Below are positions 40,094-64,000 of a DNA stretch of 64,000 nt, one piece after another. The notes beneath the pieces were generated by a model, which saw nothing but the letters and a program-made list of their open reading frames with translations, was not told the origin of the DNA and searched no databases. Numbering within the stretch: the first letter of the stretch is position 1; each line of letters begins with the position of its first letter. The position numbers and the translations under genes are program-made. This DNA is from Elusimicrobiota bacterium (GTDB lineage Bacteria; Elusimicrobiota; Elusimicrobia; JACQJP01), in the NCBI GenBank assembly GCA_016204975.1, contig JACQJP010000055.1, positions 2,098 to 66,097 of the forward strand. Reading direction: 5' to 3'.

Positions 40094-41342
40094 GGGCTTG
40101 GAAACCGTCACCAAGCTCTGGGTTCTTCCCAATAACGGCGCCCCCACCAAGAATGTCTTGGAGGAGGAGCTACGCGATTTCTTGAAGACTCCTTCCCATC
40201 CCCGGGTAGAGATATCCGTCTTCCACCCCAAAACCCTCTGGAAAAACCTCATCCGCGCCCTAAAAAAATCAGAGACCGAGAACCTTCCGGACCTCGTGCA
40301 GATCCGAGGCACCTGGACCGGCACCCTGGCTTCCCTGGGCTTGCTGCAAGAGCTCCAGGAACCGGAGTTCCTCAAACAGCTCCCCCTATTTCACCCCGCG
40401 GCCCTGCCCTCCTGCACGCTGGGGGCCTCCCAGGGCAGGCTCTTTGCCCTCCCTTGGATGATGGGTCTGAGGCACCTCTTCTACCGCAAAGACATTCTAA
40501 AAACCTTTGGGCTGGATCCCAAAAAGGATTTGGGTACCTGGGAAGGTTTCGTCGAGGCTTGCCGCCACATCAAAAAATCCTGCACGCCGGGAAGCTCACT
40601 GTTCCCTCTCGCGTTCCCCGGCTGCCGGGAAACCCTCACCCTCGCCGACCTGGCCCCCTGCGTCTGGGGATTCTGCGGGGACTTCGTCCATCCCCAAGAG
40701 CACCGGAGCCTCCTGTACCGGAAAGAAACCCGCCGCGGATTTGCCGCCTACCTCCACCTCATCGTCGAAGGGATCCAGCCCCTCTTCGGCCTGGGAGGCC
40801 TCCCCTACGGCAACTTCTTCCAGGGGAACTTCGCCTTCTCCCTTTCCGGCGAGATACCCAAAAAGACCTCTTTAAATCCCCGCCATCCAGACTTTTGCCC
40901 CGCCGTCCCCAAAAACTTAGGGCTGGCTCCCTATCCCCTCCCCTCCCCCAATCCCACGCCGCTGCTGGAAGTCCAGTGCCTGGCCCTCGTGAAAAAGGCG
41001 TCCACGCCGTCAAACGCCTTGGAGCTCTTAAAGGTCCTGCTCTCCCCACGGATGCAAAACCGCTATCCCCAAACCCTGGGACGTCTCCCATGCCTTCGGG
41101 AAAGCCTCGCCGGGGAGTTGGACAGAAAGCCGGAGCTCCAAACGATCTTCCAGGCCTCGATCGGACGCGCCCGATCCCTGCCGAACTTCGTGGCCTCCGG
41201 GGCGGTGGAGAAAATCATCGAGGAAGCCTTAGAAAACATCCTGAAAGCCATACTGAAAAAGGAGTACAGTGAAAAGCTTTTAGAACGCGAGCTCCTGCAT
41301 GCCAGCGCCGAAATAGACTATGTGGTCTCCCTATATGACTGA
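40077..41342 (+). CDS. extracellular solute-binding-protein family 1 homolog that lacks a signal peptide
   Basis: SBP_bac_1-like pattern (LDPKKDLGTWEGFVEACRHIKK, NRYPQTLGRLPCLRESL) with a non-hydrophobic N-terminus. Start at the ATG at 40077 or 40086, overlapping the tsaD end. Confidence 0.5.
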   Translation: MPSMTEGLETVTKLWVLPNNGAPTKNVLEEELRDFLKTPSHPRVEISVFHPKTLWKNLIRALKKSETENLPDLVQIRGTWTGTLASLGLLQELQEPEFLKQLPLFHPAALPSCTLGASQGRLFALPWMMGLRHLFYRKDILKTFGLDPKKDLGTWEGFVEACRHIKKSCTPGSSLFPLAFPGCRETLTLADLAPCVWGFCGDFVHPQEHRSLLYRKETRRGFAAYLHLIVEGIQPLFGLGGLPYGNFFQGNFAFSLSGEIPKKTSLNPRHPDFCPAVPKNLGLAPYPLPSPNPTPLLEVQCLALVKKASTPSNALELLKVLLSPRMQNRYPQTLGRLPCLRESLAGELDRKPELQTIFQASIGRARSLPNFVASGAVEKIIEEALENILKAILKKEYSEKLLERELLHASAEIDYVVSLYD

Positions 41343-42777
41343 GGGCTTTCCCTTCCCCTTCAGCCTCCCCGAAACGATCTCCAGGGGGCTGCGGCTTCTT
41401 TATCGCCAGAGCCGGGCGCAGGAGATAGACCTGTTTTTGAAGCGTCCTTACTGCGACGCTCTCCAGCTGGAAAAAAGCATCTACCTTGGGGAGCTTTGGG
41501 AGGCGGAGGAATCCCTGCCCATTTTTGAAGGCAGCCCCCTTCAGGCGCTCCTGACCGGCCACAAAAAGATCCTCTCCCACCCCTTCCTCTACCTGCCCCT
41601 GACGGCGCAAACCCAAAAGCTTGAGATCCAAACGATCGGGCTTTTGCGCTTAAAGCGCCGCAAATCCGCCCGAACCCTGCGCCCCCGGGAAAAAAAGCGG
41701 CTCCAGCAAGCGGCGGCGGAGTTCGCCCGGGCCCTCTATTACGCCCAGCTCCTGCAAGGACATCAAGAACGCCTGAAACGCCTGGGCACTCTGACGGAGC
41801 TCTCCTCCATGTTCGCGGCCTCCCTGCAGGTGGAGGACCGCCTGCGCCTCATCCTACAGGCGGTTCAGCAGCATTTCGGCTTCGACCGGGTGCGTCTGTA
41901 CCTGGTGGATCCGGAGGAGAAATTTCTCCAGGGAGAGCTGAGTGTGGATGTGCGCGGGCGCGTTCAGAACCTCCATGCCGAACACATCCCCTTAAGTCCC
42001 GCAAGTCATCGCTTCGCCCAGGCGATCCTGGGAGAAACCGCCGGCGCCATCCAGGAGGAGTTTGAGGACACCCTGATCTACCTGCCGCTGCGCAACCAAG
42101 GAAAACACATCGGGCTTCTAGCGGTGGACAACCTGCTTTCCCAAGAACCTATCGAAAAGGAGGACCTGGCCCTCATCCAATCCTTCGCCGGGCAGATCTC
42201 CATGGCGCTCTCCAACGCCCGGCTCTTCAAGGAGGTGGAGACCCTTTCCCTCCATGACAGCCTCACCCACCTGCCGGTGCGGCGCTACTTTATGGAAAGA
42301 CTTAAAGAGGAGATCTACCGCGCCGAAAGGTTCCGACAGTCCCTCTCCCTGGTCATTCTGGACCTGGATTTCTTCAAGCAGACCAACGACACCTATGGGC
42401 ACCAGATCGGAGATCTCCTTCTACAGGCAGTGGCTCAGAGGGTGCTTTCCAACATCCGCAAAATCGATTTTCCCTCCCGCTATGGGGGAGACGAGATTTT
42501 GATCCTGCTGCCGCAGGCGGCCCAGGAGGAGGCCCGCACCATCACCCAACGCATCCGAAACGCCATCCGCCAGATCCGCATCCCGGTGCCCTTCGCCCGG
42601 GCGCGCGAGATTTCGGCGACCGCCAGCCTGGGCATCGCCATTTTTCCACAGGACGGGCGCAAGATCGAGGAACTTATGGATAAGGCGGACGACGCCCTCT
42701 ACTGGGTCAAGGCCCATGGCAGGGACGGCATCTGCTTTTACCAAGAAATCCCCAAACAAACCCAGCTGTTTGAATGA
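41335..42777 (+). CDS. GAF-domain diguanylate cyclase-family protein (GGDEF with variant GGDEI motif)
   Basis: GAF region and a C-terminal GGDEF fold: ILDLDFFKQTNDTYGHQIGDLLLQAVAQRV ... RYGGDEILILLP. Confidence 0.65.
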   Translation: MTEGFPFPFSLPETISRGLRLLYRQSRAQEIDLFLKRPYCDALQLEKSIYLGELWEAEESLPIFEGSPLQALLTGHKKILSHPFLYLPLTAQTQKLEIQTIGLLRLKRRKSARTLRPREKKRLQQAAAEFARALYYAQLLQGHQERLKRLGTLTELSSMFAASLQVEDRLRLILQAVQQHFGFDRVRLYLVDPEEKFLQGELSVDVRGRVQNLHAEHIPLSPASHRFAQAILGETAGAIQEEFEDTLIYLPLRNQGKHIGLLAVDNLLSQEPIEKEDLALIQSFAGQISMALSNARLFKEVETLSLHDSLTHLPVRRYFMERLKEEIYRAERFRQSLSLVILDLDFFKQTNDTYGHQIGDLLLQAVAQRVLSNIRKIDFPSRYGGDEILILLPQAAQEEARTITQRIRNAIRQIRIPVPFARAREISATASLGIAIFPQDGRKIEELMDKADDALYWVKAHGRDGICFYQEIPKQTQLFE

Positions 42778-44135
42778 AAATTTTTCTTGCTTGTTCTTGC
42801 GTTCTCTTGCTTCCGGTGCTTTCTTTTGCCGCCTTCGAGGATTTCGGGGTGGGGGCGCGGGCGGCGGGCCTGGCCAACTCCTTCACCGCCGTCTCGGACG
42901 ACCTTTCGGCGCTGGCCTTCAACCCGGCCGGGTTGGGAAATCTCGGAAAGACCGAAATCTCCTCCCAGTTCGCCCGGTTCTTCGCGGCTCCGGGAGGCCG
43001 GGCGGATGTGGAATCCATTTTCTTCGGCTTTTCCCAACCCCTCCAGCTCGGGGAACGTCCCGGCAGCCTGGCCTTCGGCTTCCAAAGGCAGATGCGGCGG
43101 GATTTTTCCAAAGACACCGCTTTTTCTTTCCATTACGGAACCCGCGGGATCTATCCCCTGTGGGGAGGCCGGGCCGGATGGGGGGGGAGCCTCAAGATAC
43201 TCAAAAGGGACTCCCTCATAGCCTCCGACTCCACAAGCGGCCTGGGCCTGGACGCCGGCGCCTTTTACCTCTATCGGCAGCGCTACGCCTTGGGACTCTC
43301 CCTTTTGAACTTCAACCAACCGGACCTGAGTCTTAACCAAACTGCGGACCGGGTCCCGAGGATCCTGCGCCTGGGCCTGGCGACCAAGACGAGGGGCCTG
43401 CTTTTGACGACCGACCTGGTGCACCGCGCCAGCTCCAGAAAACAGGGGGGATTCTCACTGGCCATGGCCTCCGAGAGGTGGTGGAGCACCCGCAGACATG
43501 GATCTTATGCCCTGCGCTCCGGGCTCTCCCTGGGCAACCGCTCCAAGCTCTGGACGCTGGGGGCTTCCCTGCGCCTCTTCGGCACCCGCTTGGATTACGC
43601 CCTCTCCACCCCCTTGAGCGGCTCCATCATCCTAGGACACACCCTCTCCCTGACCCACCGCTTCGGGGAGCCCAGCCCCCAAGAAGAGTACGAGCGCCTC
43701 CTCCAGATGGAGATGGAATCCAGAAAAGAGATCCAGAAAATGCTGCAAAGGACCGAGCGGGAGGAAGAAAAGCTCCGCCTGGAAGTCTTCAACCTGAAAC
43801 TCGAGCTGGAGACCCTGAGAAAGAAACTGGCGGAGCGCGGGGAAAAAGAAGAAGCCCTACGGCAAAAATTGGAAAGTCTGGAGGGGCGTCGAGAAAAGGC
43901 GGAGAAGGAACTTAAAAAGATCCAGGAAAAACGCCGGGAGCAAAAAGCCGTGGACAAGCCCTCCGCCCTGCAGGCGTTTCAAAAGGATTGGGGCGAGTAC
44001 CTCAAACTCGAAAAGAGCGGGGCTCCAAAATCCATCCGCCTGCAGAAGCTCCGCACCCTCCTAAGCACCTATAGAGGAAAAAAAATAGACCTAGGCCCCG
44101 CCAACCGCGAACTCCTCGAAACCATGAAGGAATAG
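42774..44135 (+). CDS. outer-membrane beta-barrel-like protein (NPAGLG family) with a C-terminal about 150-aa charged coiled-coil tail
   Basis: Signal peptide MKIFLACSCVLLLPVLSFA. Motif FGVGARAAGLANSFTAVSDDLSALAFNPAGLG is shared with the OMP at 49527. C-terminal tail EEYERLLQMEMESRKEIQKMLQRTEREEEKLRLEVFNLKLELETLRKKL... Confidence 0.5.
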   Translation: MKIFLACSCVLLLPVLSFAAFEDFGVGARAAGLANSFTAVSDDLSALAFNPAGLGNLGKTEISSQFARFFAAPGGRADVESIFFGFSQPLQLGERPGSLAFGFQRQMRRDFSKDTAFSFHYGTRGIYPLWGGRAGWGGSLKILKRDSLIASDSTSGLGLDAGAFYLYRQRYALGLSLLNFNQPDLSLNQTADRVPRILRLGLATKTRGLLLTTDLVHRASSRKQGGFSLAMASERWWSTRRHGSYALRSGLSLGNRSKLWTLGASLRLFGTRLDYALSTPLSGSIILGHTLSLTHRFGEPSPQEEYERLLQMEMESRKEIQKMLQRTEREEEKLRLEVFNLKLELETLRKKLAERGEKEEALRQKLESLEGRREKAEKELKKIQEKRREQKAVDKPSALQAFQKDWGEYLKLEKSGAPKSIRLQKLRTLLSTYRGKKIDLGPANRELLETMKE

Positions 44136-44235
44136 GGCACCAGCACGCTGGGAGCCTCCGGCTCCCCGGCGGGTACCCGCAGTACTGCGGAGGGCATTGA
44201 CTGGAAGAGAAAACCTGTTAAACTAAACTGAACAT

Positions 44236-46062
44236 ATGGACTCCGATAGATTGGATAAAGCCTTAAACGAACTTTGGGAAAGGGTGGCCAGCCGGGAGAC
44301 GGCGCTCCCAGCCCTGGAATTTCCGATCCCAAGCCCCGAAGGGGACCTTCAAAAGGCCCAGAAGGAGGCCACCCAAGAGGCCTTCAAAAGCCTTCAGGAG
44401 CGCCAGGAGCAGGACCGCCTCTTTTGGCAGGAACTTTTAGAGCTCAAGGAAAAAAATATCGAGCAGTTGGGCGAGCGCCTGAGGGCGGCGGAGGAAAAGC
44501 TGTTAAGCCTCCACCAGGAGCACCGCGCCCTCCAGGAACATCTCTTTGAATCCTCCCTGGAATCCGCCTCCGAAACTCAGGAGGAAAAAAGAAACCTGGA
44601 GAAACAAAAAGAGGCCCACCGTCAGGAAATCCTCCTCCTCCAAGACATCGCGGAGGAAGCCCGCAAGAAGCTTGAGACGAGCTTCCGGCATCTGAACGCC
44701 CTCCAACACCAAAAAGAGGTGGAGGACCAGGAGCGCCATCGGCAGATACTCAAGCTGCGGGCCGCCATCCAGGCCGGGGAGAAAAGAGAGGCGGAGCTGA
44801 AAAGGGAGATTCAAGACTGGAAGTCCAAACTCCAGGAACTGGAAAAGAGTCTGCAGACGGAAAAAGAAGAATACGAGCGCAAGCTCCAGGAAGCCAAGAA
44901 GGCCCTGGAATCCACCCTGGGAGAGTTTTTAAAGGAAAGGCAGGAAAGAAACCAGGCCGAGCAGGACAAAGAGCTCGCCCTTCAAAAAACGGAGGAGCTG
45001 GAGAACCGCCTCCAGGAGATGAAGCTGGCCTGGGAGGCGGAGAGAAAACAGTGGCGGGACCTCTGGGACCGGGAAAGGTCCCTCTGGGAGACTCACCGCA
45101 AGGAGTTCGCCACCTGGGAGGAGCGCTTAAGGCGGGAGCGAGAGGTTTGGCACCGCCAGCTCCGGGGCCGAGAGGACATGGAACTTCAGCAAGCGGCCCA
45201 AATGACCCGGATCTTAGAAAACACCACCCACTGGATCCTCAAGGTAACGGCAGTCCTGAAACATTTCGCCATCCACGGCGTGGAGCATCCCCAGGTCATC
45301 ACCACCGTCCAGCCGATCGTCGCCAGATCCAAAAGAAGCCGCCTCTATGCGCTGGCGGCCCCGCTGGCCTTGCTCATCCTAGCCGGCGCCGGATGGTTGG
45401 GATATAAAAACCTTTACCTGGGGCTTCACCCAAAAGCCGCCTACTCCCTGGCTGCCCCGGAAAACCCGACCGCCCTGGCCTGGGACGGGAGCCGCCTTTG
45501 GATTGCGGACTGGTCCGGAAGCTGGAGCGCGCTGGCTCCGGAGAAACTTCCGGAAAGCCGGGGACCCGCCTCTTTTACCCTCTCCGCCGGAGCCTACCAT
45601 CCGGTGGCCCTGGCCTACGGAGCCGGGGCCTTCTGGTCCGCGGACGCGGGGCAGGGAAGAATCCTCAAACATGACCCCCAAGACCCTTCGAAGATTCTAG
45701 CCGAGTATCCCAGCCCCGGCCCCTCCCCCATCGCCCTGGGCTTTCGGGGGGAAGACCTCTGGTCCTTCGACGCCCTCTCCAACAAACTGAGCCTTCACTC
45801 CCTGCAAAATCCGCAGATCCTCTGGGCCGAACGGTCCCTCCCCGAAGGGATATCTCCCGCCGCCTTCCAGTGGCAGGAAAACTTCCTGTGGATTTTGGAC
45901 GTCCAAAAAAAGAAGCTGCTCCAGTTGAAAGCGCTGGAAAAAACCTTCCAGATCCAAAGGACCTTTCCCCTTCAGATCCCCTGGAATTCTTTTGTCTTCG
46001 CCGGCCCCCACACCCTCTGGGCCCTCTCCGAGGGGAAACTCCTCCAATACCGCCTCCGTTAA
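44236..46062 (+). CDS. hypothetical protein: N-terminal coiled coil, single TM helix, C-terminal beta-propeller-like repeats
   Basis: Long E/K/R/L coiled coil. TM helix LYALAAPLALLILAGAGWLGY. Repeated LW..D.. blades in the C-terminal 230 aa. Confidence 0.45.
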   Translation: MDSDRLDKALNELWERVASRETALPALEFPIPSPEGDLQKAQKEATQEAFKSLQERQEQDRLFWQELLELKEKNIEQLGERLRAAEEKLLSLHQEHRALQEHLFESSLESASETQEEKRNLEKQKEAHRQEILLLQDIAEEARKKLETSFRHLNALQHQKEVEDQERHRQILKLRAAIQAGEKREAELKREIQDWKSKLQELEKSLQTEKEEYERKLQEAKKALESTLGEFLKERQERNQAEQDKELALQKTEELENRLQEMKLAWEAERKQWRDLWDRERSLWETHRKEFATWEERLRREREVWHRQLRGREDMELQQAAQMTRILENTTHWILKVTAVLKHFAIHGVEHPQVITTVQPIVARSKRSRLYALAAPLALLILAGAGWLGYKNLYLGLHPKAAYSLAAPENPTALAWDGSRLWIADWSGSWSALAPEKLPESRGPASFTLSAGAYHPVALAYGAGAFWSADAGQGRILKHDPQDPSKILAEYPSPGPSPIALGFRGEDLWSFDALSNKLSLHSLQNPQILWAERSLPEGISPAAFQWQENFLWILDVQKKKLLQLKALEKTFQIQRTFPLQIPWNSFVFAGPHTLWALSEGKLLQYRLR

Positions 46063-46065
46063 GAA

Positions 46066-46148: not shown

Positions 46149-49100
46149 ATGCAGCAGCTCCTGTCGCAGCGGTCCTGTCGCAGACTTACCTTATATATGG
46201 GCAAAGCGCTTCTCGCCGCCCTGGGCCTCTCCTGCCTGCCTCTCTCTTTCTCCCGAGCCCTCAAAGTCACCGATGCCTGGGTGGAAGAAAGGGTCCTTAC
46301 CTCAACAAGCCCCGTAACATTCACAAACACCAGAACCAACAACGACCCCCGCATTGAATTTGAACAAAGACCTGGATTTAGCACCAATCCAGACAATCTT
46401 GGCACAGCCCAACGGACAAGCGCCAGGCTGTGCGCCAACATCGATGAGGTCGCAGATGAGCTGACCATAGACATCATCAAATTCGACGGAGTAAATTGCG
46501 TCAGCGGCGCTCTAAACGAGGGCTGCAACCCCGTCCGGACCTTTCAGTTTCCAAACCCCACTGCGGGAGATCACTGTGACGCTTGGGAGGGAGACTACAA
46601 CATCCTGGGGGAGTTCGGGAAAACCAACGGGCAGTATGGCTTTAAGGCCACGGCGCAGATCATCACTACCTCCACTGCCACCGGGACCCTTCAGGAGACC
46701 CACGTCTTCGCCTTTCCGGGCGCGGGGCAGGACCCTCTGAGCATTGACGTAGTCAACATCCATGTCGTGCGCAGCTCCCCGACCGTAGTCGGAAACGTCA
46801 CGCCGGTGGCCGCCGCTCCTTATAATATCACCTTCCGGCTCTCCAAAGCGGCCACGACCACGCTGGATATCATAGACACCCAAACCGGCAATAAGGTCCG
46901 GGACGTCGTCTTCAACCTGCCCAACCAAGGAGAAATCGAGCCGGACGGCACCCTGACCGTGGGGTTCTCCTGGGACGCCAGGGACAACTCCGCCGTCCGG
47001 GTCTCCTCCGGGATCTATACCGCCGTGATCCACGCTACCAATACCGATTTCTTCGGTCTGGACCATGCCGTCAGCAAAAGCCGCCAGATCGCGGTGGATC
47101 CCCTCCAGATCACCGACGTCAGCGTCAGCCCCCTCCAAGCCGACTCCACCGCCCTGGCGCTGCTCAGCTTCATGACCGCCGAACCCATGGAGATCACCTG
47201 GCGCATCTACCATCCCTCCACCACCTTCGATAACGTCAACAATCCCATCCCCCAGCCGACCGCCGGAACCCTGTTGCGGGAATTCGTAGAGCAAAAACCG
47301 GCTCGCCTGACGGAGGTGATGTTCTGGGACGGCAGGGACTCGGCCGGCAATTTTCTTACGGACGGAAACTACAAATTCGTCCTCTTCGGACGGGACCTGG
47401 AAAATCCCATCCGCACCACCTCCAAGCCCACCGTCAGCACGGTGGAGATCAAAAGGGGCTTCGTGGACATCAGCCAGCTCCAGCCTCAGTCCACGACCAT
47501 CGGCACCGCCCCATCCATCAACGCAGTGGCTCCCTTCACCTTCAGCTACTCCATGTCCCGGGAAGGGATCGTCTCCTTAAGGATTTTAAAACCTCTGGTC
47601 GGAGGCGCGACCCAGTTCATCCGGACCCTGGTCAACGGCGAGACCCGCTCCGGAAACACCCTCATCGTGGACCCGGTGGGCACCGGCGGCTGGGACGGAA
47701 AAGACCAGTTCGGGAGTCCGGCCTCCTCCGGCACCTATGCCGCGGAGCTGACCGTCCGGGACCCGGTCTTCACCAACCGCGTGACCACCACCACCGTCTT
47801 TTTCCCCATCCAGCTCTTCCGCATCACCGACGTCGCCACCTCCCCCCTGATCTCGGACTCCACCGCCGCCGCCACCCTGACCTACCAGCTTTCGGAGGGG
47901 GGGACGGTCTTTTGGCGAATCTATCCCCCGGGGACGGATGTGGTCACCAACTGGCCTTTTCCCAACCCCTCCGGGGTCAGCTCTGTGCGCACCCTCTCGG
48001 GCTTTCGCCCCGGAAGAAAAAAAATCACCGAATTCTGGGACGGCCGAAACGAAGAGGGGCTATTCGTCCCGGACGGGGACTACGTCTCCACCCTGATCTT
48101 TCACGAGGGTTTCGGCAATCGCAGCTCCGACCTCCTGACCCCGGATGCGGACGTGGCCCGGGGACAGATCGTGTTCACCGTCTTCCAGGTCATCCCCACC
48201 CTCCCCCAGCTTTTCAACTCCTCCCAGACGATCACCCTGCCGCCCTTCGAGATTGACTACACCGTCACCCGGGAATCCACGGTCACCATCCGCGTCATTC
48301 AAAACGACACCGGCCAAACGGCGCGCACCATCATCAGCGGCCAGGTGCGCTTCGGCAACATCTTAAATAAAGAATTCTGGGACGCCCGGGACGACCAGGG
48401 CCGCTTCGTCCGCCCCGGCCTCTACACGGTCAAGGCCGTCGCGCAGGATTTTGCCTCCGTCACCGCCTCCACCTCCACCGCCCAGGCTACGGTCTCCGTG
48501 GACCCCCTGCGCATCTACGACGTCTCCATCCAGGAGCTCTTGGCCCCGGGCGGCGAGCCCCGGGCCCAGATCAGCTACCAGGTCTCGGAAGCCATGAAGG
48601 TCGCCGTCCAAATCTACAAGCCCGGAACCCTCACCAACGGGTTCGGCAATGAGAACCTCCTGGTGCGAAAATTTGTGGGGTTTCGCCCCAGCCGCACCCT
48701 GATCCGGGAGTTCTGGGACGGAACCAACGAGGCTAAAACGCGCCTGGAAAACGGGGCCTATGTCTTCCGGATCATCGCCTCCACCGCTTCCAACGCCATT
48801 GACGACGAGGGAAATGTGGTGGCCGGGGCCCAGGGCCTGTTGGTGCCGGACCAGATCGTCAGCGAGCTTTCCGTGGTTCAGGTGGGCTCGGCGGATCCCC
48901 AGGGAGATTTCGAGAAGAACACCATCGTCTTTCCAAACCCTTTAAAAAATCTGACCCTGAATGTGACTCAGTGCACCCAACCGGTGGCCAGCGCCTCCGC
49001 CTGCAACGCCTCCACCCCATCCTCCGGAGACGCCTGCTTTCTGATCGCCCTCCCGTTAAAAGCGCAACTTAATTTCAAACTCTACACCTTAAGCGGCGAG

Positions 49101-49292: not shown

Positions 49293-49306
49293 ACCATGAA
49301 ATCCCG

Positions 49307-49506: not shown

Positions 49507-49526
49507 TGTTCCTATTTGGATTATTC

Positions 49527-50878: not shown

Positions 50879-50880
50879 TT

Positions 50881-56808: not shown

Positions 56809-57696
56809 ATGAGCGTTGGGATCCTTCTCACCATTCTCGCTGCGTTCGGGGTGTTTCTCATCGTCTACCAGCTTCTCCGCCCGGCTCCCGCTCCGGGATC
56901 CGCCGGCTTTGCCGAGGCAGGCCTCCCCAAAACTGGACCGGGGGGCTACGTGGAACCGAATCCCCAGGGCAGCCTTTGGGAGAGGCTGGACGCCAAAATG
57001 CTGAAGATAACCTTTTTGAAAAACAGCCTGGAACGATACTATCTCCTTTTAGGGCAACCCAGCCGCTTCAGTCCGGTGGCCATACTGCATGCCAAGCAGG
57101 GGACGGCCTTCTGCGCGGTCTTGGCCGGGGCCTTGCTGCTGGGCACCCTCCATCCCCTGACCCTGCTGATCCTGGCCCTGTTGGGATTCTCCCTTCCGGA
57201 CCTCCTCTTCAGCCAACGCATCCGCAAAAGGCAGGACCAGATCTTGCGGAATTTCCCCACCCTGGTGGATCTTGTGGCGCTGACCGTCGAATCCGGACTG
57301 GATTACCTGGCCTCTTTCGAACGCATCCTGCGCAACACCCGCCAGCACAGCCCCTTGGAGGAGGAATTGCAAAAAAGCTTGAACGAAGTCCAGCTGGGGT
57401 ATCTGCGGCGAGAGGCCCTGCGTCATTTTGCGCAGCGAACCGGCATCCAGGAGCTGCGCTCCTTTGTGGGTCTCATCCTGCAATCGGATGAGCTGGGAAC
57501 GAGCCTCGTGGAACTTTTGCGCAACTTCGCCCAGGACATGCGCTTTAGGCGCCTCAGCCGCGCGGAGCGCCTGGCTTCTGAAGCCTCCACCAAGATGCTT
57601 TTTCCGCTGTTCTTTTTTATCTTCCCCACCGTTTTCGTCTTGATGTTCGCGCCTCTGCTCAACGCCTTGATCAAAGGAGGGGGGCTTCCCTTTTAA
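56809..57696 (+). CDS. TadC-like (T2SS-F domain) inner-membrane protein
   Basis: MSVGILLTILAAFGVFLIV... and a T2SSF-type helical domain. The ORF track start is upstream, inside tadB. Confidence 0.65.
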   Translation: MSVGILLTILAAFGVFLIVYQLLRPAPAPGSAGFAEAGLPKTGPGGYVEPNPQGSLWERLDAKMLKITFLKNSLERYYLLLGQPSRFSPVAILHAKQGTAFCAVLAGALLLGTLHPLTLLILALLGFSLPDLLFSQRIRKRQDQILRNFPTLVDLVALTVESGLDYLASFERILRNTRQHSPLEEELQKSLNEVQLGYLRREALRHFAQRTGIQELRSFVGLILQSDELGTSLVELLRNFAQDMRFRRLSRAERLASEASTKMLFPLFFFIFPTVFVLMFAPLLNALIKGGGLPF

Positions 57697-58979
57697 TGAA
57701 CCGCCTATTGCTGTGGGTAGGAGCTCTCCTGTACCTGCCGGCGGCCGCGCAGGCTCAATCCTTGCGCTCGGCGAGCACGCAACCCTCCGTCAGCGAAAGG
57801 CTCTTCTGGGACCTTTCCAAGACCCAGGTGGGGACCCTCTCCACCCAACAGGAAAGAAAACGCTATCTCACCACCATCCAGGCGGAAAAGGGCCGCATCA
57901 CCCAAAGCTCCCTGGATATCATCTACGAAAACGCCATGGACCTCTATCGGAGAGGCGAATATGAAGAGGCAGCGGAGCTCTCCGGAACCATCCTCTCGGT
58001 GGACCCCAACTTCCGTGGGGCCTTAGCCCTGCGGGACGCGGCCACCAAGCTTCAATCCGGAAAGGGCACCGGCCTTTCCCCCCAAAGCCTTCTGGAAGAC
58101 AAATTTGAAAGAGGCCTGGCCCTCTACCGCCAGGGCCGCCTGGTGGAGGCGGCGCGCCTCTTCGAAGAAACCGTCCAGCTGGACCCCTGGAACCTGAAGG
58201 CCAGGGACTGGCTCCGGCGCACCCATTATCAAATCGCCGAAAGGCGCACCCTGCGGGGGCAGGCGCTGTACGCGCAGGGAAAAATCGAGGAGGCCCTCCA
58301 AATGTGGTACGGAGCGGTGGTGCTCAACCCGCAATTTCCGGGCTTGCGGGGGCAGATCACCCTGGCGGAATCGGCGCTGCGGGACCGGGAAACCGGCGAA
58401 TCCCTGGCGCAGGCCCTAGGCCACTACAACCGCAAGGAACACGAAAAGGCATTGCAAAGCCTGAGCGAAGCCCTACAGATGGACCCCGCCAACCTCCGGG
58501 CGCAACGCCTGACGCAGGAGATCCGCCGGGAGATGGGAGTGAAGTATCTCCAAGAAGGCCAAAAGCTCTATCGCCAGGAGAAACTCAACTCCGCCATCCA
58601 CCAGTTCCAAAAGGCCCGCCCCTACGGCCTAGAGCAAGAGGCGGACCTTTGGATCGCCCGTTCCCGGGGAAAAATTCAGCAGCTCAAGAAGGCCCGCGCC
58701 GAAATGGCCCGCGTGGAGCGGAAAAGAAAGGAGAAGGAAAAAGAGCAGCCTTCCGCCGCCCAGGCCCAAGCCCCCGAATCCGCCGCCCCTTCCGCCGTCC
58801 TGCCCACCGAGGAGGCCAAGCGGATGGCCAACAAACACTACTTCTCCGGGGTCATATATTTTCAGAAGGGGGATTACGAACACGCCCGGAACGAATGGCA
58901 GATCGCCAATCAGCTCGACCCGGCCCATGAGGACGCCCACATCGGTCTGCAGCGCATCCAAGGCATCCTCGGTCCCTAG
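57696..58979 (+). CDS. secreted TPR-repeat protein (TadD-like position in the Tad locus) with a K/E-rich tail
   Basis: Signal peptide MNRLLLWVGALLYLPAAAQAQ and multiple TPR-like helices. TAATG overlap with tadC. Confidence 0.55.
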   Translation: MNRLLLWVGALLYLPAAAQAQSLRSASTQPSVSERLFWDLSKTQVGTLSTQQERKRYLTTIQAEKGRITQSSLDIIYENAMDLYRRGEYEEAAELSGTILSVDPNFRGALALRDAATKLQSGKGTGLSPQSLLEDKFERGLALYRQGRLVEAARLFEETVQLDPWNLKARDWLRRTHYQIAERRTLRGQALYAQGKIEEALQMWYGAVVLNPQFPGLRGQITLAESALRDRETGESLAQALGHYNRKEHEKALQSLSEALQMDPANLRAQRLTQEIRREMGVKYLQEGQKLYRQEKLNSAIHQFQKARPYGLEQEADLWIARSRGKIQQLKKARAEMARVERKRKEKEKEQPSAAQAQAPESAAPSAVLPTEEAKRMANKHYFSGVIYFQKGDYEHARNEWQIANQLDPAHEDAHIGLQRIQGILGP

Positions 58980-59038
58980 GACGCTGGCGAGCGCTGCGAG
59001 CCCGCCTGGTACCCGAAGCTCTGCGGAGGGTGCTAGCT

Positions 59039-60172
59039 ATGTCCATTAAGCTCAAATGGGGAGTGACCTTTTTGATGATCGCCGTCTATGCGATGGTGTT
59101 GGGAGGAATCTTCTACTACAACCTCTTCCGGTGGACCTTCGAGGAGCAGCTCAAAAACGACACCCTGCAGATCATCCGGACCCATGCCCCCTCGCTTCTG
59201 AAGGGTCTGCAGAAAAACCCCGCCGTCATCACCTTGGAGGAGATGGACATCCTGCAAACCTTGGCCCGCAACAAAAACATCGCCCAGGTGCTCTACCTCA
59301 ACAAATATGGGGAGGTACGCTGGCACCGCGACCCTTCCCGCATCAACCTGCCCTTCGAGGAGCACCAAAAGCAGGCCGGGCCGACCACCGACGCCATCCA
59401 GCAGGCCTACCTGGCCAAGGCCCCCAAGATCCGCAGCTTCGAGCGGGAAAACCAAAGATTCTACGAGATCGCCGCTCCCATCCTCTCTCGCAACGAACCC
59501 ACCGGCATCCTCTCCCTGCATGTGACCCGAGAGGAGGTCTCCCAAACCATCGGGGCGGCCATGAAAAAATACGCCGTGGGGGCCCTGGGAATCGTTCTGA
59601 TCCTGGGCATCCCCCTCCAGATATTCTTCAGCCGATTTGTCTTTCATCCCCTGCAGATGCTGCTGGATGCGGTGGAAAACCTGAATACCCGAAACCTGGA
59701 GCTAAAGTTTCCTAAAAGGCGGGACGAATTTGGTAAACTAGCCCAAAACCTCCAGTCCCTGCTGGGACGCCTGCGGGAGGAGTTGGCTGCGGTTCAGCAT
59801 AAAGGGGAGCAGCGAGGCCGCTGGGAGCAGAGGCGCTGGGAATCCTTGGTGCGCGTTCTGGCCCAGAGCCGCCAGGCCATCATCGTGGATGAAAACAACA
59901 ACGTCCTCTACACCAATTTTCCGGTCCTCAAGGCCGCCACCCAAGGCATGGGGACCTCCAAGCTCCACCTGTTGGACGTGGTGGACAGCCGGCAGCAAGA
60001 GCTTCTGCGCTTGGTCAACTGGGCCCTGGAACACCCCAATGAGCCGGCGGAAGGAGACACCGACTTTCGGGGCCGCCCCTGCCACGTGCGCATCCTAAAC
60101 CTGGAGGACACCGGGGAAGACCGTCGGACCATCATACTGTTCGAACCTAAAAAAGAAAGCACCTGGATATAA
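59039..60172 (+). CDS. two-TM sensor-like protein with a periplasmic domain and a HAMP domain but no kinase output
   Basis: TM1 WGVTFLMIAVYAMVLGGIFYY. TM2 plus HAMP: LGIVLILGIPLQIFFSRFVFHPLQMLLDAVENLNTRNLELKFPKRRDEFGKLAQNLQSLLGRL. Confidence 0.5.
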   Translation: MSIKLKWGVTFLMIAVYAMVLGGIFYYNLFRWTFEEQLKNDTLQIIRTHAPSLLKGLQKNPAVITLEEMDILQTLARNKNIAQVLYLNKYGEVRWHRDPSRINLPFEEHQKQAGPTTDAIQQAYLAKAPKIRSFERENQRFYEIAAPILSRNEPTGILSLHVTREEVSQTIGAAMKKYAVGALGIVLILGIPLQIFFSRFVFHPLQMLLDAVENLNTRNLELKFPKRRDEFGKLAQNLQSLLGRLREELAAVQHKGEQRGRWEQRRWESLVRVLAQSRQAIIVDENNNVLYTNFPVLKAATQGMGTSKLHLLDVVDSRQQELLRLVNWALEHPNEPAEGDTDFRGRPCHVRILNLEDTGEDRRTIILFEPKKESTWI

Positions 60173-60175
60173 AAT

Positions 60176-60350
60176 GGACTTTTGCAAAATGGAATTGGGG
60201 GTTCGTCCGGGGGTTGCCTTCCGAAAAACGCTCGCCATTTGCGAGGCTCGCTCCGGCAATTTGGCCGGCTGTATGCCCGTGCCGGCCAAATCACGGTTTT
60301 CTCCAGGCAATCCCCCGGCCACCCCCTTCTCTATAAATTTGCAAAAGTCC
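60176..60350. mobile_element. MITE-like element (175 bp), the shortest and cleanest copy, with terminal inverted repeats GGACTTTTGCAAA / TTTGCAAAAGTCC
   Basis: Termini read directly. Internal gggttgccttccgaaaaacgctcgccatttgcgaggctcgc is the reverse complement of the 55-kb copy's interior. Confidence 0.65.
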
Positions 60351-60375
60351 AGTATAAACAAAAAGGAGGTCGTAC

Positions 60376-60669
60376 ATGAGCTATGAAATTCGCTCCATCC
60401 CGATCAAGTCCCTGATCGTTTCGGTGGTCCCTGCGGTTCTTTTCTTCCTGGGACTTTTCGGGGGCATCGTCACGTTCTTTCTCGTCCCCAACCCGCAGTT
60501 GGGGGGGCTGGGCCCCAGCGTCCGCCTCATGGCCACGGGCCTATTCGCCCTGCTCTACATGGCCCTGATGAACGCGCTCTTGGTGGTGGCCGCCTTCCTC
60601 TATAACCTCTTTGTCAACTCCATAGGCCTGCGGGGCATCCGCGTGGAGATGGAATCGGAAGAAACATAA
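60376..60669 (+). CDS. small two-TM membrane protein, hypothetical
   Basis: 97 aa, two hydrophobic helices, AGGAGG RBS upstream of the ATG at 60376. Confidence 0.3.
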   Translation: MSYEIRSIPIKSLIVSVVPAVLFFLGLFGGIVTFFLVPNPQLGGLGPSVRLMATGLFALLYMALMNALLVVAAFLYNLFVNSIGLRGIRVEMESEET

Positions 60670-60701
60670 CCTGCGGAGGCGATCCGCAAGGAGGGGCCTA
60701 A

Positions 60702-61406
60702 ACCATCGTCAAGCTCATCTTTGCCTCAAACGAGCCCGCCCGCGCGCTCTCCATTCTGGAGGAACTCTCCAAGCAAAAGTTCGAGGTCTCCACCCTCCAC
60801 AGCGCCAAAGAGGTGCGGGAAAAAATCGCCCGGGGGGAGTGCGATCTCCTGGTCCTCAACAAAAGTCTCCAGGATGGCAGCGGCCTCCAGCTCCTGCGCG
60901 CCTTGCGGGAGCGCCGGGAAACCCGCCACCTGGCCGTCGTCGCCCTCCTGGGCCCCCAAGAAAGCGGCCAACGCCTGGAGTACTTCCAGGCCGGGGCGGA
61001 CGAATGCCTTTCTTTAAATCAGGACATCCAGGAGTGCGTCGCCCGCATGAAGGCGGTCCTGCGGCGGCTCCACCCCCAGGTCCGGGAGGAGATCCTGCGC
61101 GCCGGGGACATCGAACTCAACCTTTCCCACTATGTGGTGCGGGTCAAAGGCCGGGAGATCCGCTTGACCTCCAAGGAGCTGGATCTTTTATACGTCTTCA
61201 TGAACGCGCCCCAACGGGTCCTGAGCCGTCCCTACTTGATCGAGCGGGTCTGGGGGTACAACTACTTCGGCTCTCCCAGGACCGTGGACGTCCATGTCCG
61301 GCGCCTGCGGCAGAAACTCGGAAAAACGGCAGCCGCCTATATCCAAACCCTCTCCTGCGTCGGCTATAAGCTGGTGCCCCCGGACGCGGGCACAAAACGC
61401 AAATGA
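60702..61406 (+). CDS. OmpR/PhoB-family DNA-binding regulator with a degenerate (pseudo-)receiver domain; no canonical start codon
   Basis: Receiver fold KLIFASNEP..FEVSTLHSAKEV..CDLLVLNKSLQDGSG has N at the phospho-acceptor position and ASNEP in place of the acidic pocket. C-terminal winged helix LTSKELDLLYVFMNAPQRVLSRPYLIERVWG...TVDVHVRRLRQKLG. The ORF track starts at the GTG at 60813, inside the receiver. Confidence 0.6.
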   Translation, partial: TIVKLIFASNEPARALSILEELSKQKFEVSTLHSAKEVREKIARGECDLLVLNKSLQDGSGLQLLRALRERRETRHLAVVALLGPQESGQRLEYFQAGADECLSLNQDIQECVARMKAVLRRLHPQVREEILRAGDIELNLSHYVVRVKGREIRLTSKELDLLYVFMNAPQRVLSRPYLIERVWGYNYFGSPRTVDVHVRRLRQKLGKTAAAYIQTLSCVGYKLVPPDAGTKRK

Positions 61407-61792
61407 GCACCATCCTGATTGTAGACGACGACGCAAATCTCCGGGAGTCCCTGGCGGAGATCCTGGAGCTGGAGGGTTTTGATTGTCTGACCGCAGCCAC
61501 CTTCAAGGAGGGCATCCAGACCGCCCGCTCGAAATCCCCTCATGCAGTGGTGATGGACATCCAACTGCCGGACTCCACGGGTTTCCAGCTCTGCCAGGAA
61601 CTGCGCAAAAGCTCGCCCCACACTACGCTCATCTTGATGTCGGGCAGGTTTCTATCCAGCGAGGAGAAAAGACAGGGGTTTGACCTGGGGGCGGACGAGT
61701 ATCTGACCAAACCCTTCGATCCAAAGGAGCTGATCCTGCGCATCCGGCAGCTCCTGAAAGGGCATCAGGGAGGAGACTCGAAAGCCAGATGA
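61403..61792 (+). CDS. single-domain CheY-like response regulator
   Basis: MSTILIVDDDANLRESLAEILELEGFDCL...VVMDIQLPDSTG...TKPF is canonical. Confidence 0.8.
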   Translation: MSTILIVDDDANLRESLAEILELEGFDCLTAATFKEGIQTARSKSPHAVVMDIQLPDSTGFQLCQELRKSSPHTTLILMSGRFLSSEEKRQGFDLGADEYLTKPFDPKELILRIRQLLKGHQGGDSKAR

Positions 61793-63684
61793 AAAGAGGC
61801 AAGCTTTTCTCCAAATTCCTGTTTTGGTTTTTGCTGATTTCACTCATTCCCCTGGTCGGCATGGGATACCACCTGGTCACCCTCACCCAGGATTCCCTGC
61901 GGGAGGAATCCCTGCGCGTTCAGGAGGCGGCCACCCGCCGAATCTCCGAGACGGTCGTGCACTACGTCAAAACCTTTCGCAACGTCCTCGCGGTCACCGC
62001 CCGCATTGAATCCTTCACCTCCATGGACCCGGACGTCCAACGCCGGATACTGGAGCGGATCATGGAAGCCCACCCGGTCTTTCTGAGGCTCTCCGTCCTC
62101 AACCTAAACGGCGTGGAAACCGTGCACCTGGAAAGATTCTCCGGATCTCCCGTCCCTTCCTCCCCAGACCACGCCACCTCCCTGGCGTACCTGACCGCCA
62201 TTCGGGAAGGCGAATACATCGGATCGCTGGAGCACATTGAAAACTATCCCATCGTCACCATCGCTCTGGTGGTGGAGGACCCCTCCCGAAGAAAAGCGGT
62301 GGGGACCCTGCAAGGCAAAATCAACCTGATCGGCCTAAGCTACATGCTTCAGCAGGTCCCTGCCAGCGAGGCCGGGGCGGCCTTCGTGGCCGGTCCCCAG
62401 GGCTTTCTGATCGCTCACTCCGATCCCCAAAAGGTCTTAGCGCCCAAAGAGACCCTCTCCCCCACAATCTCGGAGGCCATCCAAACAAGCCAAGAGGACT
62501 CCGGGGGTAGAGAGATGCAACTGGAAAGCGGCGAAAAAATTCTAGGCAGCTTTACCCACATCAAGGAACTGGGTTGGGTCGCCTTTCTGCAACAGCCCCT
62601 GGAAGAGGCCCTGGGCACCGCCCGAACCATGAGAAAGCAGATCCTGACCGCCTTGTGGATAGTCATCCTGGCCACCTTTCTGTTGAGCTTCATGGTGGCC
62701 AATCACATCACCCAGCCCATCCGCGCCCTGCAGGCGGCCTCGGCCCAGATCGCCGCCGGAAACTTCGATCTGCCGGAGATGGCGGATACCGGAGACGAGA
62801 TCGGGGAGCTGGGGCAGGCCTTTCAAAAGATGGGTTCCATCATCCAGCAAAAAACCCAGCAGCTCCTTGGAGCCAAAGAGGAGCTGGAAAAACTCAACCG
62901 CTCTCTGGAAAACCGGGTGGATGCGCGCACCCGGGAGTTGCATGCCGCGCAGAATGAGCTCATCCACAAAGAGAGGCTGGCGGCGATCGGGCAGATGGCT
63001 TCGGTGGTCGGCCACGAAATCCGGAACCCCCTGGCGGTCATCAACAACTCCATCTACTTCATCAAGGCCAAGATGAGCGCCAACGGAAAGGACCTGGACC
63101 CAAAACTCCTCAAGCATATCCAGATCATCGAGTCCGAGATTCAGCAGGCCAACTCCATCATCAACGAGATATTGACCTTCGCCCGCACCCGGGAGCTCAA
63201 GCCCGAGCGGCACAACTTCCACCACTTCTTAGAAGAACTTCTGACCTCCTATCCCTTCCCGGATGCCGTGGAACTGCGCAAGCAGATTCCCCCGGGGGAA
63301 ATCTGGGTGATCATGGACGCCGACGAGATCCGCCAGGCCCTGCGCAATATCCTGGGAAATTCCATCCAGGCCATGACGGAGGGGGGAAAAATCTTCGTGA
63401 GCCTAAAGCCGCATCCCCCAAAATCCATCCAACTGGAAATCTCGGATACCGGCCCCGGCATCCCCGCGGAAATCCTGGACAAGGTGTTCACGCCTTTTTT
63501 CACCACCAAACCCAGCGGCACGGGGCTCGGCTTGGCGGTGGTAAGAAAGGTGATGGATCGCCACCACGGCACGGTAGAGGTCCGCTCCGTGCCGGGCCAG
63601 GGAACCTCCTTCACCCTGCACCTGCCCCTGCCCGCTGCTGCCGCCCCCTCCCCGGGCGCCGCCCAGAAAAAAGACCATGCCTGA
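61789..63684 (+). CDS. sensor histidine kinase (two TM helices, periplasmic Cache-like domain, HAMP, HisKA, HATPase_c)
   Basis: H-box VGHEIRNPLAVINNSIYF, N/G boxes NILGNSIQAM, DTGPGIPAE, GTGLGLAVV. Confidence 0.8.
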   Translation: MKRGKLFSKFLFWFLLISLIPLVGMGYHLVTLTQDSLREESLRVQEAATRRISETVVHYVKTFRNVLAVTARIESFTSMDPDVQRRILERIMEAHPVFLRLSVLNLNGVETVHLERFSGSPVPSSPDHATSLAYLTAIREGEYIGSLEHIENYPIVTIALVVEDPSRRKAVGTLQGKINLIGLSYMLQQVPASEAGAAFVAGPQGFLIAHSDPQKVLAPKETLSPTISEAIQTSQEDSGGREMQLESGEKILGSFTHIKELGWVAFLQQPLEEALGTARTMRKQILTALWIVILATFLLSFMVANHITQPIRALQAASAQIAAGNFDLPEMADTGDEIGELGQAFQKMGSIIQQKTQQLLGAKEELEKLNRSLENRVDARTRELHAAQNELIHKERLAAIGQMASVVGHEIRNPLAVINNSIYFIKAKMSANGKDLDPKLLKHIQIIESEIQQANSIINEILTFARTRELKPERHNFHHFLEELLTSYPFPDAVELRKQIPPGEIWVIMDADEIRQALRNILGNSIQAMTEGGKIFVSLKPHPPKSIQLEISDTGPGIPAEILDKVFTPFFTTKPSGTGLGLAVVRKVMDRHHGTVEVRSVPGQGTSFTLHLPLPAAAAPSPGAAQKKDHA

Positions 63685-64000
63685 AAAAATTCCCTCTCCC
63701 ACCGTTTTGATCGTGGACGACGACAAAAACCTTCGGTCCACCCTGCGGGACCTGCTGGAAGAAGACGGCTACCAGGTTCTGGAAGCTGCCAACGGCAAAG
63801 AGGCCCTGAAACAGGTCCGTGCGAACTCCCCGCCTCTGATCCTGATGGATTTTCAGCTCCTGGACCGCACCGGAATCGACGTGGTCCGCGACATCCGCAG
63901 TCTTAAGGGGGAAACCCTCATCATCATGATCACCGGACACGCCTCCCTGGAAACGGCGGTTTTGGCCATCCAAGAATCGGTCTATGACTTTTTGATCAAA
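63677..64000 (+). CDS. response regulator receiver domain (probably NtrC/sigma-54-activator type), partial at the window end
   Basis: MPEKIPSPTVLIVDDDKNLRSTLRDLLEEDGYQVLEAANGKEALKQV...LILMDFQLLDRTGIDV..IMITGHASLETAVLAIQESVYDFLIK. Edge-truncated, so absent from the ORF track. Confidence 0.75.
   Translation, partial: MPEKIPSPTVLIVDDDKNLRSTLRDLLEEDGYQVLEAANGKEALKQVRANSPPLILMDFQLLDRTGIDVVRDIRSLKGETLIIMITGHASLETAVLAIQESVYDFLIK

Follow-up and report, generated by a model that had tools for sequence, protein, structure and literature searches.

Within a 64,000-nucleotide stretch of DNA (the window; contig JACQJP010000055.1 of assembly GCA_016204975.1), which comes from an Elusimicrobia metagenome-assembled genome (MAG) and has a GC content of ~0.59 along its whole length, the gene for a large secreted protein with immunoglobulin-like repeats (Ig1047) is followed by that for an outer-membrane beta-barrel (OMP2) and then by the genes of a Tad pilus, in an order that recurs across Elusimicrobia. 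The reading that we favour with moderate confidence, from sequence and predicted structure, is a composite locus in which OMP2 would anchor Ig1047, a candidate adhesin, by its C-terminal domain (CTD), and in which the anchored protein would cooperate with the pilus. Elusimicrobia are a widespread, barely cultivated and poorly known phylum, and we know of nothing on how they attach to surfaces or hosts. A tightly conserved, phylum-wide locus of this kind is a strong candidate for their main adhesion device.

A gene order kept across Elusimicrobia

Genes were assigned by Pfam and NCBIfam profile scans of the open reading frames (ORFs) of the window together with direct reading of the sequence. 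The features at the centre of the locus are these:

46149-49292, plus strand: Ig1047, secreted 1047-aa FlgD-Ig-repeat protein (PF13860, 92 bits, and a weak CHU_C match)
49296-50459, plus strand: OMP2, PorV/PorQ-family outer-membrane beta-barrel (NF033709)
50480-50508, plus strand: sigma70-type flp promoter (TTGACA, 17 nt, TGtTACACT), ~20 nt past the OMP2 stop
50516-50674, plus strand: Flp pilin 1, processing motif G/QATTEY (GKG/QATTEYLL)
50690-50878, plus strand: Flp pilin 2, processing motif G/QSATEY (RG/QSATEYLL), with a strong AGGAGG before a TTG start
50878-51354, plus strand: TadE-like minor pilin (PF07811, 44 bits)
51368-52123, plus strand: CpaB/RcpC periplasmic alignment protein (PF16976, 48 bits, and SAF)
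52128-52868, plus strand: minimal secretin of 246 aa, signal peptide and secretin domain only (PF00263, 132 bits)
52890-55100, plus strand: TadZ-TadA fusion (PF00437, 217 bits; CbiA, 25 bits; TIGR03819, 339 bits)
55097-56806, plus strand: TadB platform protein with a long N-terminal extension, start uncertain (PF00482, 68 bits)
56809-57696, plus strand: TadC platform protein (PF00482, 57 bits)
57696-58979, plus strand: secreted TPR protein in the TadD position (TPR families; no lipobox)

Related loci (labelled L001-L057) were collected through context look-ups of homologues of CC608 and OMP1, two envelope proteins encoded upstream of Ig1047 (see “OMP1 and CC608, a proposed mechanism and its alternatives”), and by scanning genomes with TadZ-TadA; further loci were supplied by looking up a 1495-aa Ig homologue of a gut-type lineage and by scanning metagenomes with an OMP2 alignment, and all were mapped by tblastn, blastp and hidden Markov models. 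Wherever a locus is long enough, the order Ig, OMP2, Flp, TadE, CpaB, secretin, TadZ-TadA, TadB, TadC, TPR holds with no exception. Some 15 such loci come from genomes (L003-L014, L018-L021) and 36 from metagenomes (L022-L057), with distant Elusimicrobiales (L010, L012) and the gut-type lineage (L021) among them. The Ig gene is directly followed by that for OMP2 throughout the loci, stop and start overlapping by 4 nt in orthologues, and the TPR gene follows TadC in every locus extending that far. Across loci, the Tad core proteins are 56-66% identical and the accessory proteins 30-50%.

The original prediction held that the region encodes a single co-regulated adhesion or surface-structure system, and that a neighbourhood not conserved in related genomes would speak against this. 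The cluster is in fact kept across Elusimicrobia at 30-65% protein identity, and in L003 and L004, where upstream synteny is broken, CC608, Ig, OMP2 and the Tad genes are retained together. One inherited surface system is supported for a core of the Ig protein, OMP2, the Tad and TPR proteins and, usually, a HAMP-domain sensor; the link to cyclic di-GMP (c-di-GMP), OMP1, CC608 and the phosphorelay genes are lineage-variable additions. Tad loci in Elusimicrobia have been reported before (PMC6668835, PMC8809381), and no description of the composite of Tad with Ig and OMP2 was found in the literature searched. One further contig (L009, JAOAJI010000037.1; 6.5 kb) is labelled 'Candidatus Micrarchaeota archaeon' and has a CpaB-secretin-TadZ-TadA-TadB-TadC-TPR series 45-57% identical to that of the window; almost certainly it belongs to Elusimicrobia and was mis-binned.

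All genes from 41320 to the window end lie on the plus strand with overlapping or short junctions, as had been claimed, and the order proposed for them, from a GAF-GGDEF protein to a dCache-HAMP kinase, was borne out by the profile scans and by direct reading. Two particulars needed revision: the co-oriented run begins not at 41335 but four genes earlier, at 35665, in housekeeping genes, and from 41320 onward it holds 20-21 genes, not 23. Strand switches number ~9 in the 24 gene junctions of the first 35 kb and zero in the last 23, an outcome with a chance of roughly 0.625^23, or ~2e-5, by our own gene count.

Transcription is likely to be less unified than strand. The promoter before flp1 scores at least 9 of 12 in 35 of 40 distinct loci and 10 of 12 in 27 of the 40 (background, 8% and 2.8%); its -35 and extended -10 elements are invariant across loci while the spacer varies, and flp1 begins within a few bases of where transcription would be expected to start. 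Ahead of the OMP1, CC608, Ig, OMP2, CpaB, secretin, TadZ-TadA, TPR and HAMP genes, further conserved sigma70-like promoters were not found. A promoter-like site before CC608 (44197-44224) was rejected, as it reaches at least 9 of 12 in only 4 of 16 loci and is not conserved. Because of the conserved promoter before flp1, the cluster would comprise at least two transcription units, the first extending to OMP2 and the second starting at flp1, and is not one simple operon. The gene content fits a surface or adhesion system, as had been envisioned. The first unit may begin with housekeeping genes, since the GGDEF and OMP1 genes of the window overlap by 4 nt and a promoter-like site lies at 35595. 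A terminator scan gave counts equal to shuffled expectation and was set aside.

The Ig1047-OMP2 pair and the pilus machine

In Ig1047 a signal peptide and an N-terminal beta region are followed by three tandem pairs of FlgD-Ig-like domains (residues 220-915) and by the CTD (~930-1047). Mapping of internal repeats resolves the middle part into six FlgD-Ig-like beta-sandwich domains, and the AlphaFold2 (AF2) model is all-beta (predicted local distance difference test, pLDDT, 77); together with the 92-bit PF13860 match, this confirms the FlgD-Ig-repeat character first proposed for the protein. A fold search with the model returned only generic multi-Ig matches (mastigoneme, alpha-2-macroglobulin, S-layer) at very low template-modelling (TM) scores and gave no functional lead. 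The family numbers more than 100 clusters, and nearly all of the named ones are from Elusimicrobia.

More can be learned from the C-terminal domain, which carries YPNP and GVYF motifs. When a profile of 13 family CTDs was compared with the PDB, the top matches were the CTDs of PorZ (5m11) and PorU (6za2), at E 0.002; taken singly, 12 of the 13 match PorZ (best 9.7e-12), PorU (1.3e-8) and TIGR04183 (1.9e-7), the sorting model of type IX secretion systems (T9SS), and one homologue has been named a T9SS type A sorting domain protein by NCBI. PorZ and PorU are the two T9SS proteins whose CTDs are left uncleaved, and they are held at the surface by the barrels PorQ and PorV (PMC5562754, PMC10947112).

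The gene that follows encodes a barrel of just this family. OMP2 scores 112.1 bits against NF033709 (PorV/PorQ family), above the cutoff of 90, and only 30.6 bits against the PorV equivalog NF033710 (cutoff 250) and 42.2 bits against the PorQ equivalog NF033711 (cutoff 220); since both equivalog cutoffs are failed by a wide margin, it is a member of the family and an orthologue of neither. Its C-terminus is KF, as in many barrel proteins. The window copy also holds a ~200-bp element at 49307-49506, inside the 5' end of the gene; its 13-bp ends (GGACTTTTGCAAA / TTTGCAAAAGTCC) are perfect inverted repeats, and a 26-nt direct repeat lies within it. The element is in frame, adds ~62 aa between the start and the signal-peptide core, is missing from five orthologues and occurs as a single copy in the window; it looks like a small insertion resembling a miniature inverted-repeat transposable element, or is possibly an assembly artefact.

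Pairing of the two proteins appears to be specific. Throughout 428 kb of Elusimicrobia DNA the CTD profile has no match other than the Ig protein, and that of OMP2 matches OMP2 and, weakly, OMP1 but nothing else, which makes for a one-to-one pairing. More distantly related OMP2-like barrels (26-37% identity, on metagenome contigs of GC 0.41-0.71) are encoded without Tad genes, and a same-strand ORF ending in such a CTD lies directly upstream in 27 of 42 evaluable cases, with diverse cargo heads (fn3, Kelch, TIG, CBM11). On the strength of those 27 cases, a CTD protein with its own PorV-like barrel can be regarded as a widespread two-gene cassette, which in Elusimicrobia has come to take a fixed place ahead of the flp genes. 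The 4-nt overlap, the one-to-one profiles and the recurring distant pairs suggest that Ig1047 and OMP2 act as PorZ and PorU do with their barrels.

Comparison with the T9SS attachment complexes of Porphyromonas (PorQ-PorZ, PorV-PorU) brings out both likeness and difference. As there, a gene for a PorV/PorQ-family barrel adjoins one for a surface protein, and the uncleaved CTDs of PorZ and PorU are those that the Ig1047-family CTD best resembles. In contrast to those complexes, the phylum lies outside Bacteroidota, OMP2 falls far under the PorV and PorQ equivalog cutoffs, and no T9SS core genes are nearby; the cargo is a string of Ig repeats and not a sortase or a beta-propeller protein, the pair is linked to a Tad pilus, and the pairing is one to one where a T9SS shuttle serves many cargos. 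The non-Tad components had been described as a set with no characterized counterpart; judged by sequence, the core of that set does seem to have one, in the CTD-barrel pairs of T9SS attachment, while its combination with Tad was not found described.

On the pilus side, Flp proteins with a G/XXXXEY motif, a TadA/CpaF ATPase with TadB and TadC, and a secretin with RcpC/CpaB are all present. The GTG start of pilin 1 (50516) was placed from the position of the promoter, and orthologues of this pilin were found in L005, L006 and L022-L054; orthologues of pilin 2 are flagged as PF16982 Flp1_like in L003, L004, L019 and L020. The two Flp ORFs of the window itself fall below Pfam thresholds, and pilin 2 gives a weak Class_III signal match. 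A 294-aa ORF taken for TadE was rejected as an over-extension covering the two flp genes. At 50875-50890 the TadE-like gene reads AGGAGG ATA ATT TTT, with no canonical start codon evident, and further downstream, at 60699-60813, the OmpR-like gene likewise has none, reading TAA ACC ATC GTC... where orthologues start MRIN; this suggests that the two genes use ATC, ATT or ATA starts or contain small sequence errors.

CpaB is 56-62% identical across loci, and the secretin measures 239-271 aa in all Elusimicrobia loci. In outgroup TadZ-TadA loci (Planctomycetia, Omnitrophota) the secretins measure 526-563 aa and include an N-terminal domain, and Ig and PorV-like genes are lacking. The TadZ-TadA fusion is shared with those outgroups as well as conserved across Elusimicrobia; its 339 bits against TIGR03819 lie just under the cutoff of 373, and its putative TadZ part (the N-terminal 220 aa) matches CbiA/ParA at 25.1 bits (cutoff 25.4) and has no receiver-like N-domain. 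TadB orthologues align only from residue ~119-143. No match to a prepilin peptidase (TadV/CpaA, peptidase A24) was found among the scanned ORFs of the window, and one may be encoded elsewhere in the genome.

Known Tad/Flp systems (type IVc; Aggregatibacter, Pseudomonas tad-rcp, Caulobacter cpa) share with the window Flp, a TadE-like protein, RcpC/CpaB, secretin, TadA with a putative TadZ, TadB, TadC and a TPR protein. The window differs from them in its secretin cut to 246 aa, in TadZ fused to TadA without a receiver-like domain, in the lack of prepilin peptidase, TadG and RcpB, in a TPR protein without lipobox and in an Ig-OMP2 cassette fixed ahead of the flp genes. RcpC forms a periplasmic conduit to the secretin in Tad systems (PMC12307814), and CpaB would make up for the N-domains that the secretin lacks, perhaps helped by the tail of OMP1, the propeller of CC608 and the TPR protein. 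With its short secretin and its fusion protein the Tad machine is pared down, and it may lend itself to structural work.

OMP1 and CC608, a proposed mechanism and its alternatives

Two further envelope proteins are encoded directly ahead of Ig1047:

42774-44135, plus strand: OMP1, PorV/PorQ-like barrel (residues ~20-297) with a ~155-aa C-terminal coiled-coil tail
44236-46062, plus strand: CC608, 608-aa bitopic inner-membrane protein (AF2 model and fold search)

The OMP1 tail ends in a conserved domain, and a length of ~450 aa is conserved in the family (~37 clusters; source names, where given, all Elusimicrobia). OMP1 scores 38.7 bits against NF033709, below the cutoff of 90, and the comparison of its family with that of OMP2 by hhalign gives a probability of 98.9% (E 3e-17); by this alignment its barrel is to be read as an OMP2 paralogue.

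CC608 is identical in sequence to NCBI HY402_07190 (Elusimicrobia MAG) and has no match in Pfam or NCBIfam. It is composed of a cytoplasmic two-helix coiled coil (38-345), a transmembrane helix (374-394) and a periplasmic five-bladed propeller (397-607), the last well predicted in an AF2 model of pLDDT 78.7; the coiled coil, membrane helix and propeller foreseen from the sequence were thus recovered by modelling and fold search. The propeller resembles the glutaminyl cyclase fold (2iwa, 3mbr, 3nol; TMt 0.70-0.77), and the likeness to these plant and bacterial enzymes is one of fold only, at ~10% identity; because the propeller sequence has no match among PDB chains, we do not read it as an enzyme assignment. 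The full architecture is confined to ~45 representative clusters, and source names in the family, where given, are all Elusimicrobia. Its most conserved part, above the periplasmic propeller, is a cytoplasmic helix at residues 266-305 (45031-45150; WEAERKQWRDLWDRERSLWETHRKEFATWEERLRREREVWHRQL) in which six Trp and many Arg and Glu residues are invariant. Some other proteins from the search of representatives (P0275, P0290 among them) match the CC608 profile at ~318-505, that is, the membrane helix and first blades, with an N-terminal receiver in place of the coiled coil; this replacement is a hint that the helix-propeller module is an output controlled from the cytoplasm.

PodJ of Caulobacter crescentus, a polar organiser of the Cpa/Tad pilus, combines a cytoplasmic coiled coil, one transmembrane helix and a periplasmic protein-binding domain (TPR and peptidoglycan-binding). 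CC608 is similar to it in topology, and in topology alone, and in its association with a Tad locus; it differs in that its periplasmic part is a five-bladed propeller and in that it is absent from some Tad-bearing Elusimicrobia. OMP1 and CC608 are present in most loci, both are missing in L021, OMP1 is missing in L003, L004 and L013, and a CC608 homologue stands alone in L001/L002. They had been counted among the parts of the system, and both turn out to be optional.

In the mechanism that can be envisioned, Ig1047 would be exported by Sec and then held non-covalently at the surface, its uncleaved CTD binding the OMP2 barrel as in PorZ-PorQ and PorU-PorV. The anchored protein would serve as a surface adhesin or coat working together with the Tad pilus. 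OMP1 and CC608 could together span the envelope as a scaffold by which the machine, with its unusually short secretin, is positioned or stabilised. Expression would be set by the two-component proteins, and c-di-GMP input through a pair of genes for a solute-binding-protein (SBP)-like protein and a GGDEF protein would be an add-on in some lineages, the window included (see “Regulatory and neighbouring genes”).

A number of observations weigh against this picture. Family scans of the window ORFs detected no T9SS core genes, the rest of the window being ordinary genes. The window's own CTD gives weak T9SS matches only (PorZ, E 0.013; PorU, E 0.11) and carries a Cys-rich insertion, and the 62-aa insertion in the signal region of its OMP2 is likewise unusual. 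OMP1 and CC608 can be dispensed with in some lineages (L021, L013, L003). The cassette exists without Tad in other contigs, and in Elusimicrobia a conserved promoter separates it from the flp and tad genes. Finally, an upstream block of ScpAB, GlgA, FtsX_ECD, M23, S41 and TsaD genes is as syntenic as the cluster itself; conserved order is therefore no proof of shared function, and co-orientation, which had been used to delimit the system, does not mark its boundary, as these housekeeping genes are co-oriented too.

One alternative concerns OMP1 and CC608 specifically, which might be an outer-to-inner-membrane tether of the upstream division block (an EnvC-like FtsX-ECD/M23 protein and a CtpA-like protease) and not part of the pilus. 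We regard this as unlikely, if worth keeping in view. Both genes lie between TsaD and the Ig gene, after the M23-S41-TsaD block, in L005, L018-L020, L038, L045, L051 and L054; the window has no conserved promoter before OMP1, whose gene is overlapped by the GGDEF gene; and the solitary CC608 of L001/L002, like the Tad and Ig-OMP2 genes kept without either protein in L021, would suit a function apart from the pilus. On the other hand, CC608 stays with Ig-OMP2-Tad where the upstream block is absent (L003, L004, L013), OMP1 is a paralogue of OMP2, and among the loci examined there is no instance of OMP1 without CC608 and the Tad cluster.

Export of Ig1047 might instead depend on a T9SS, canonical or divergent, encoded elsewhere in the genome, with OMP2 as its shuttle or anchor and the linkage to Tad reflecting co-regulation of two adhesion devices. 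The matches of the CTD to T9SS type A, PorZ and PorU models, the name that NCBI has given to one homologue and the place of OMP2 in the PorV/PorQ family are all in keeping with this. It is nevertheless a rather improbable solution: OMP2 fails the equivalog cutoffs (31 vs 250 bits for PorV, 42 vs 220 for PorQ), and the Pfam labels obtained for the window and for ~430 kb of related loci include no core gene, no dedicated search having been made. T9SS is described in two reports as confined to Bacteroidota (PMC11611037, PMC12365241), and searches of the literature for Elusimicrobia with T9SS or type IX secretion, or for PorV with a Tad pilus, found nothing relevant.

It could also be supposed that the modules are mere neighbours, Ig-OMP2, OMP1 and CC608 being independent of Tad in a region slow to rearrange in Elusimicrobia. 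The equal synteny of the FtsX_ECD/M23-S41-TsaD block, and even of ScpAB-GlgA, the occurrence of the cassette without Tad in other taxa and the conserved promoter between OMP2 and flp1 all lend themselves to such an account. We think it improbable given that Ig-OMP2-flp adjacency is unbroken in ~50 loci, L010, L012 and L021 included, that L003 and L004 lost upstream synteny and kept CC608-Ig-OMP2-Tad, and that only ~20 nt separate the OMP2 stop from the flp promoter.

Equally doubtful in our estimation is a Tad machine acting as an exporter of folded Ig protein, in the manner of a type II secretion system (T2SS), through the minimal secretin, with OMP2 capturing the CTD. In all loci the genes for cargo and anchor keep their place immediately upstream of the pilin genes, the window has no T9SS core gene, and a single filament superfamily takes in both Tad and T2SS (PMC6668835); CTD cargo is gathered by PorV at the translocon (PMC5562754), and the role of OMP2 could be likened to that of PorV at SprA. 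Against this, the cassette occurs in many contigs with no nearby Tad or secretin gene, from which it follows that a CTD-barrel pair needs no Tad in general, and the promoter of the flp genes, strong and typical of pilins, points to a real pilus. We would likewise give little credence to the extended form of the idea, in which the CTD-barrel pair works without any T9SS translocon and OMP2 docks at the Tad secretin, the exit for Ig1047, to capture the CTD there. If this were true, the locus would combine a type IV filament machine with sorting in the T9SS style, and CTD/PorV sorting would be older or more modular than T9SS itself.

PorV/PorQ-type barrels are here matched one to one with CTD proteins, well outside the T9SS context of Bacteroidota and beside a type IV filament machine. 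Pairs of this kind outside T9SS raise the testable question of how CTD proteins cross the outer membrane, and Ig-OMP2 may provide a simple two-gene model for CTD-barrel recognition.

Regulatory and neighbouring genes

Genes flanking the core on either side, with the housekeeping genes at the start of the co-oriented run, are as follows:

35665-37560, plus strand: FtsX_ECD/M23 protein, single 631-aa ORF
37590-38960, plus strand: S41 protease (profile scan)
to 40093, plus strand: TsaD (profile scan)
40077-41342, plus strand: SBP-like protein, no obvious signal peptide, start uncertain (PF13416, 49 bits)
41320-42777, plus strand: GAF-GGDEF diguanylate cyclase (PF00990, 161 bits; PF01590, 48 bits)
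59030-60172, plus strand: HAMP-only membrane sensor with periplasmic domain, HAMP (22.9 bits) and ~130-aa C-terminal domain
60376-60669, plus strand: small polytopic membrane protein (orthologues of 140-143 aa in L008 and L014)
~60702-61406, plus strand: OmpR-type pseudo-receiver regulator (Trans_reg_C, 91 bits; REC, 40 bits once extended upstream)
61403-61792, plus strand: CheY-like single-domain regulator (PF00072, 93 bits; intact DD...D...K set)
61789-63684, plus strand: dCache-HAMP-HisKA-HATPase sensor kinase (orthologues in L008 and L014)
63677-64000, plus strand: receiver domain, its gene truncated at the window end (PF00072, 85 bits)

The end of the SBP-like gene overlaps the start of the gene for the soluble GGDEF protein, and the pair recurs in L021; the SBP-like protein may sense a ligand in the cytoplasm as a partner of the cyclase. 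In the cyclase the signature motif is GGDEI, and an I-site, RKID, lies five residues upstream of it. Control by c-di-GMP, which had been proposed for the system as a whole, is not a conserved feature: a GGDEF gene lies upstream of the cluster in only ~4 of ~15 loci (the window, L013, L021 and L055), and SBP and GGDEF are optional, lineage-specific parts. The corresponding slot is elsewhere empty (L019) or filled by a TMEM260-like glycosyltransferase (L005, L018, L020).

Downstream, a HAMP-only gene follows the TPR gene in L006, L008, L013, L014, L021, L035, L038, L041, L045, L051 and L056 and is absent in L010, L012 and L055. The set of small membrane protein, pseudo-receiver OmpR, CheY, kinase and receiver-kinase is found in all three loci of the window's clade that reach that far (the window, L008, L014); in the Elusimicrobiales loci L010 and L012 a secreted protein of 271-281 aa and a GAF-PAS kinase take its place. 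The phosphorelay of the original prediction thus stands for the closer clade and does not extend to those more distant loci. The OmpR-type regulator of the window has SN, N, L and L in place of DD, D, T/S and K (alignment by eye), every position being substituted as the term pseudo-receiver had implied; the acceptor Asp is Asn in the window and Gly in L008 and L014, and the winged-helix domain is intact. CheY is 61-64% identical in L008 and L014. For the last gene, which had been called NtrC-like, only the receiver is visible; it is 60% identical to an L014 orthologue of 379 aa with REC-HisKA-HATPase architecture, and the gene is probably such a hybrid rather than an NtrC-like regulator. Two ORFs of this region were rejected as spurious for want of a family match, one of 70 aa (60174-60386) and one of 98 aa (60721-61017), the latter overlapping the OmpR-like gene in another frame.

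The TMEM260-like (GT-C) gene, for a protein O-mannosyltransferase, stands directly before OMP1-CC608-Ig at L005 5826-7385, L018 8384-9982 and L020 8381-9946, in the slot held by SBP-GGDEF in the window. Eukaryotic TMEM260 mannosylates Ig-like IPT domains; by analogy, and with such a gene adjoining, the Ig-repeat protein may be glycosylated. The window has two TMEM260-like genes with TPR tails and a PMT_2 gene elsewhere (1195-5261 and 20252-21892).

Other genes of the window can be noted briefly. FtsX_ECD and M23, joined in one ORF here, are two genes (~246 aa and ~370 aa) in L005 and L018-L021. A BatA/VWA/DUF4159, DUF58 and MoxR AAA+ operon occupies 7279-12232 on the minus strand, beside two TMEM260-like/TPR genes. 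A XerC-type recombinase gene (13631-14413) adjoins recA (14525-15652), and a class A beta-lactamase-like gene is found at 19196-20155.

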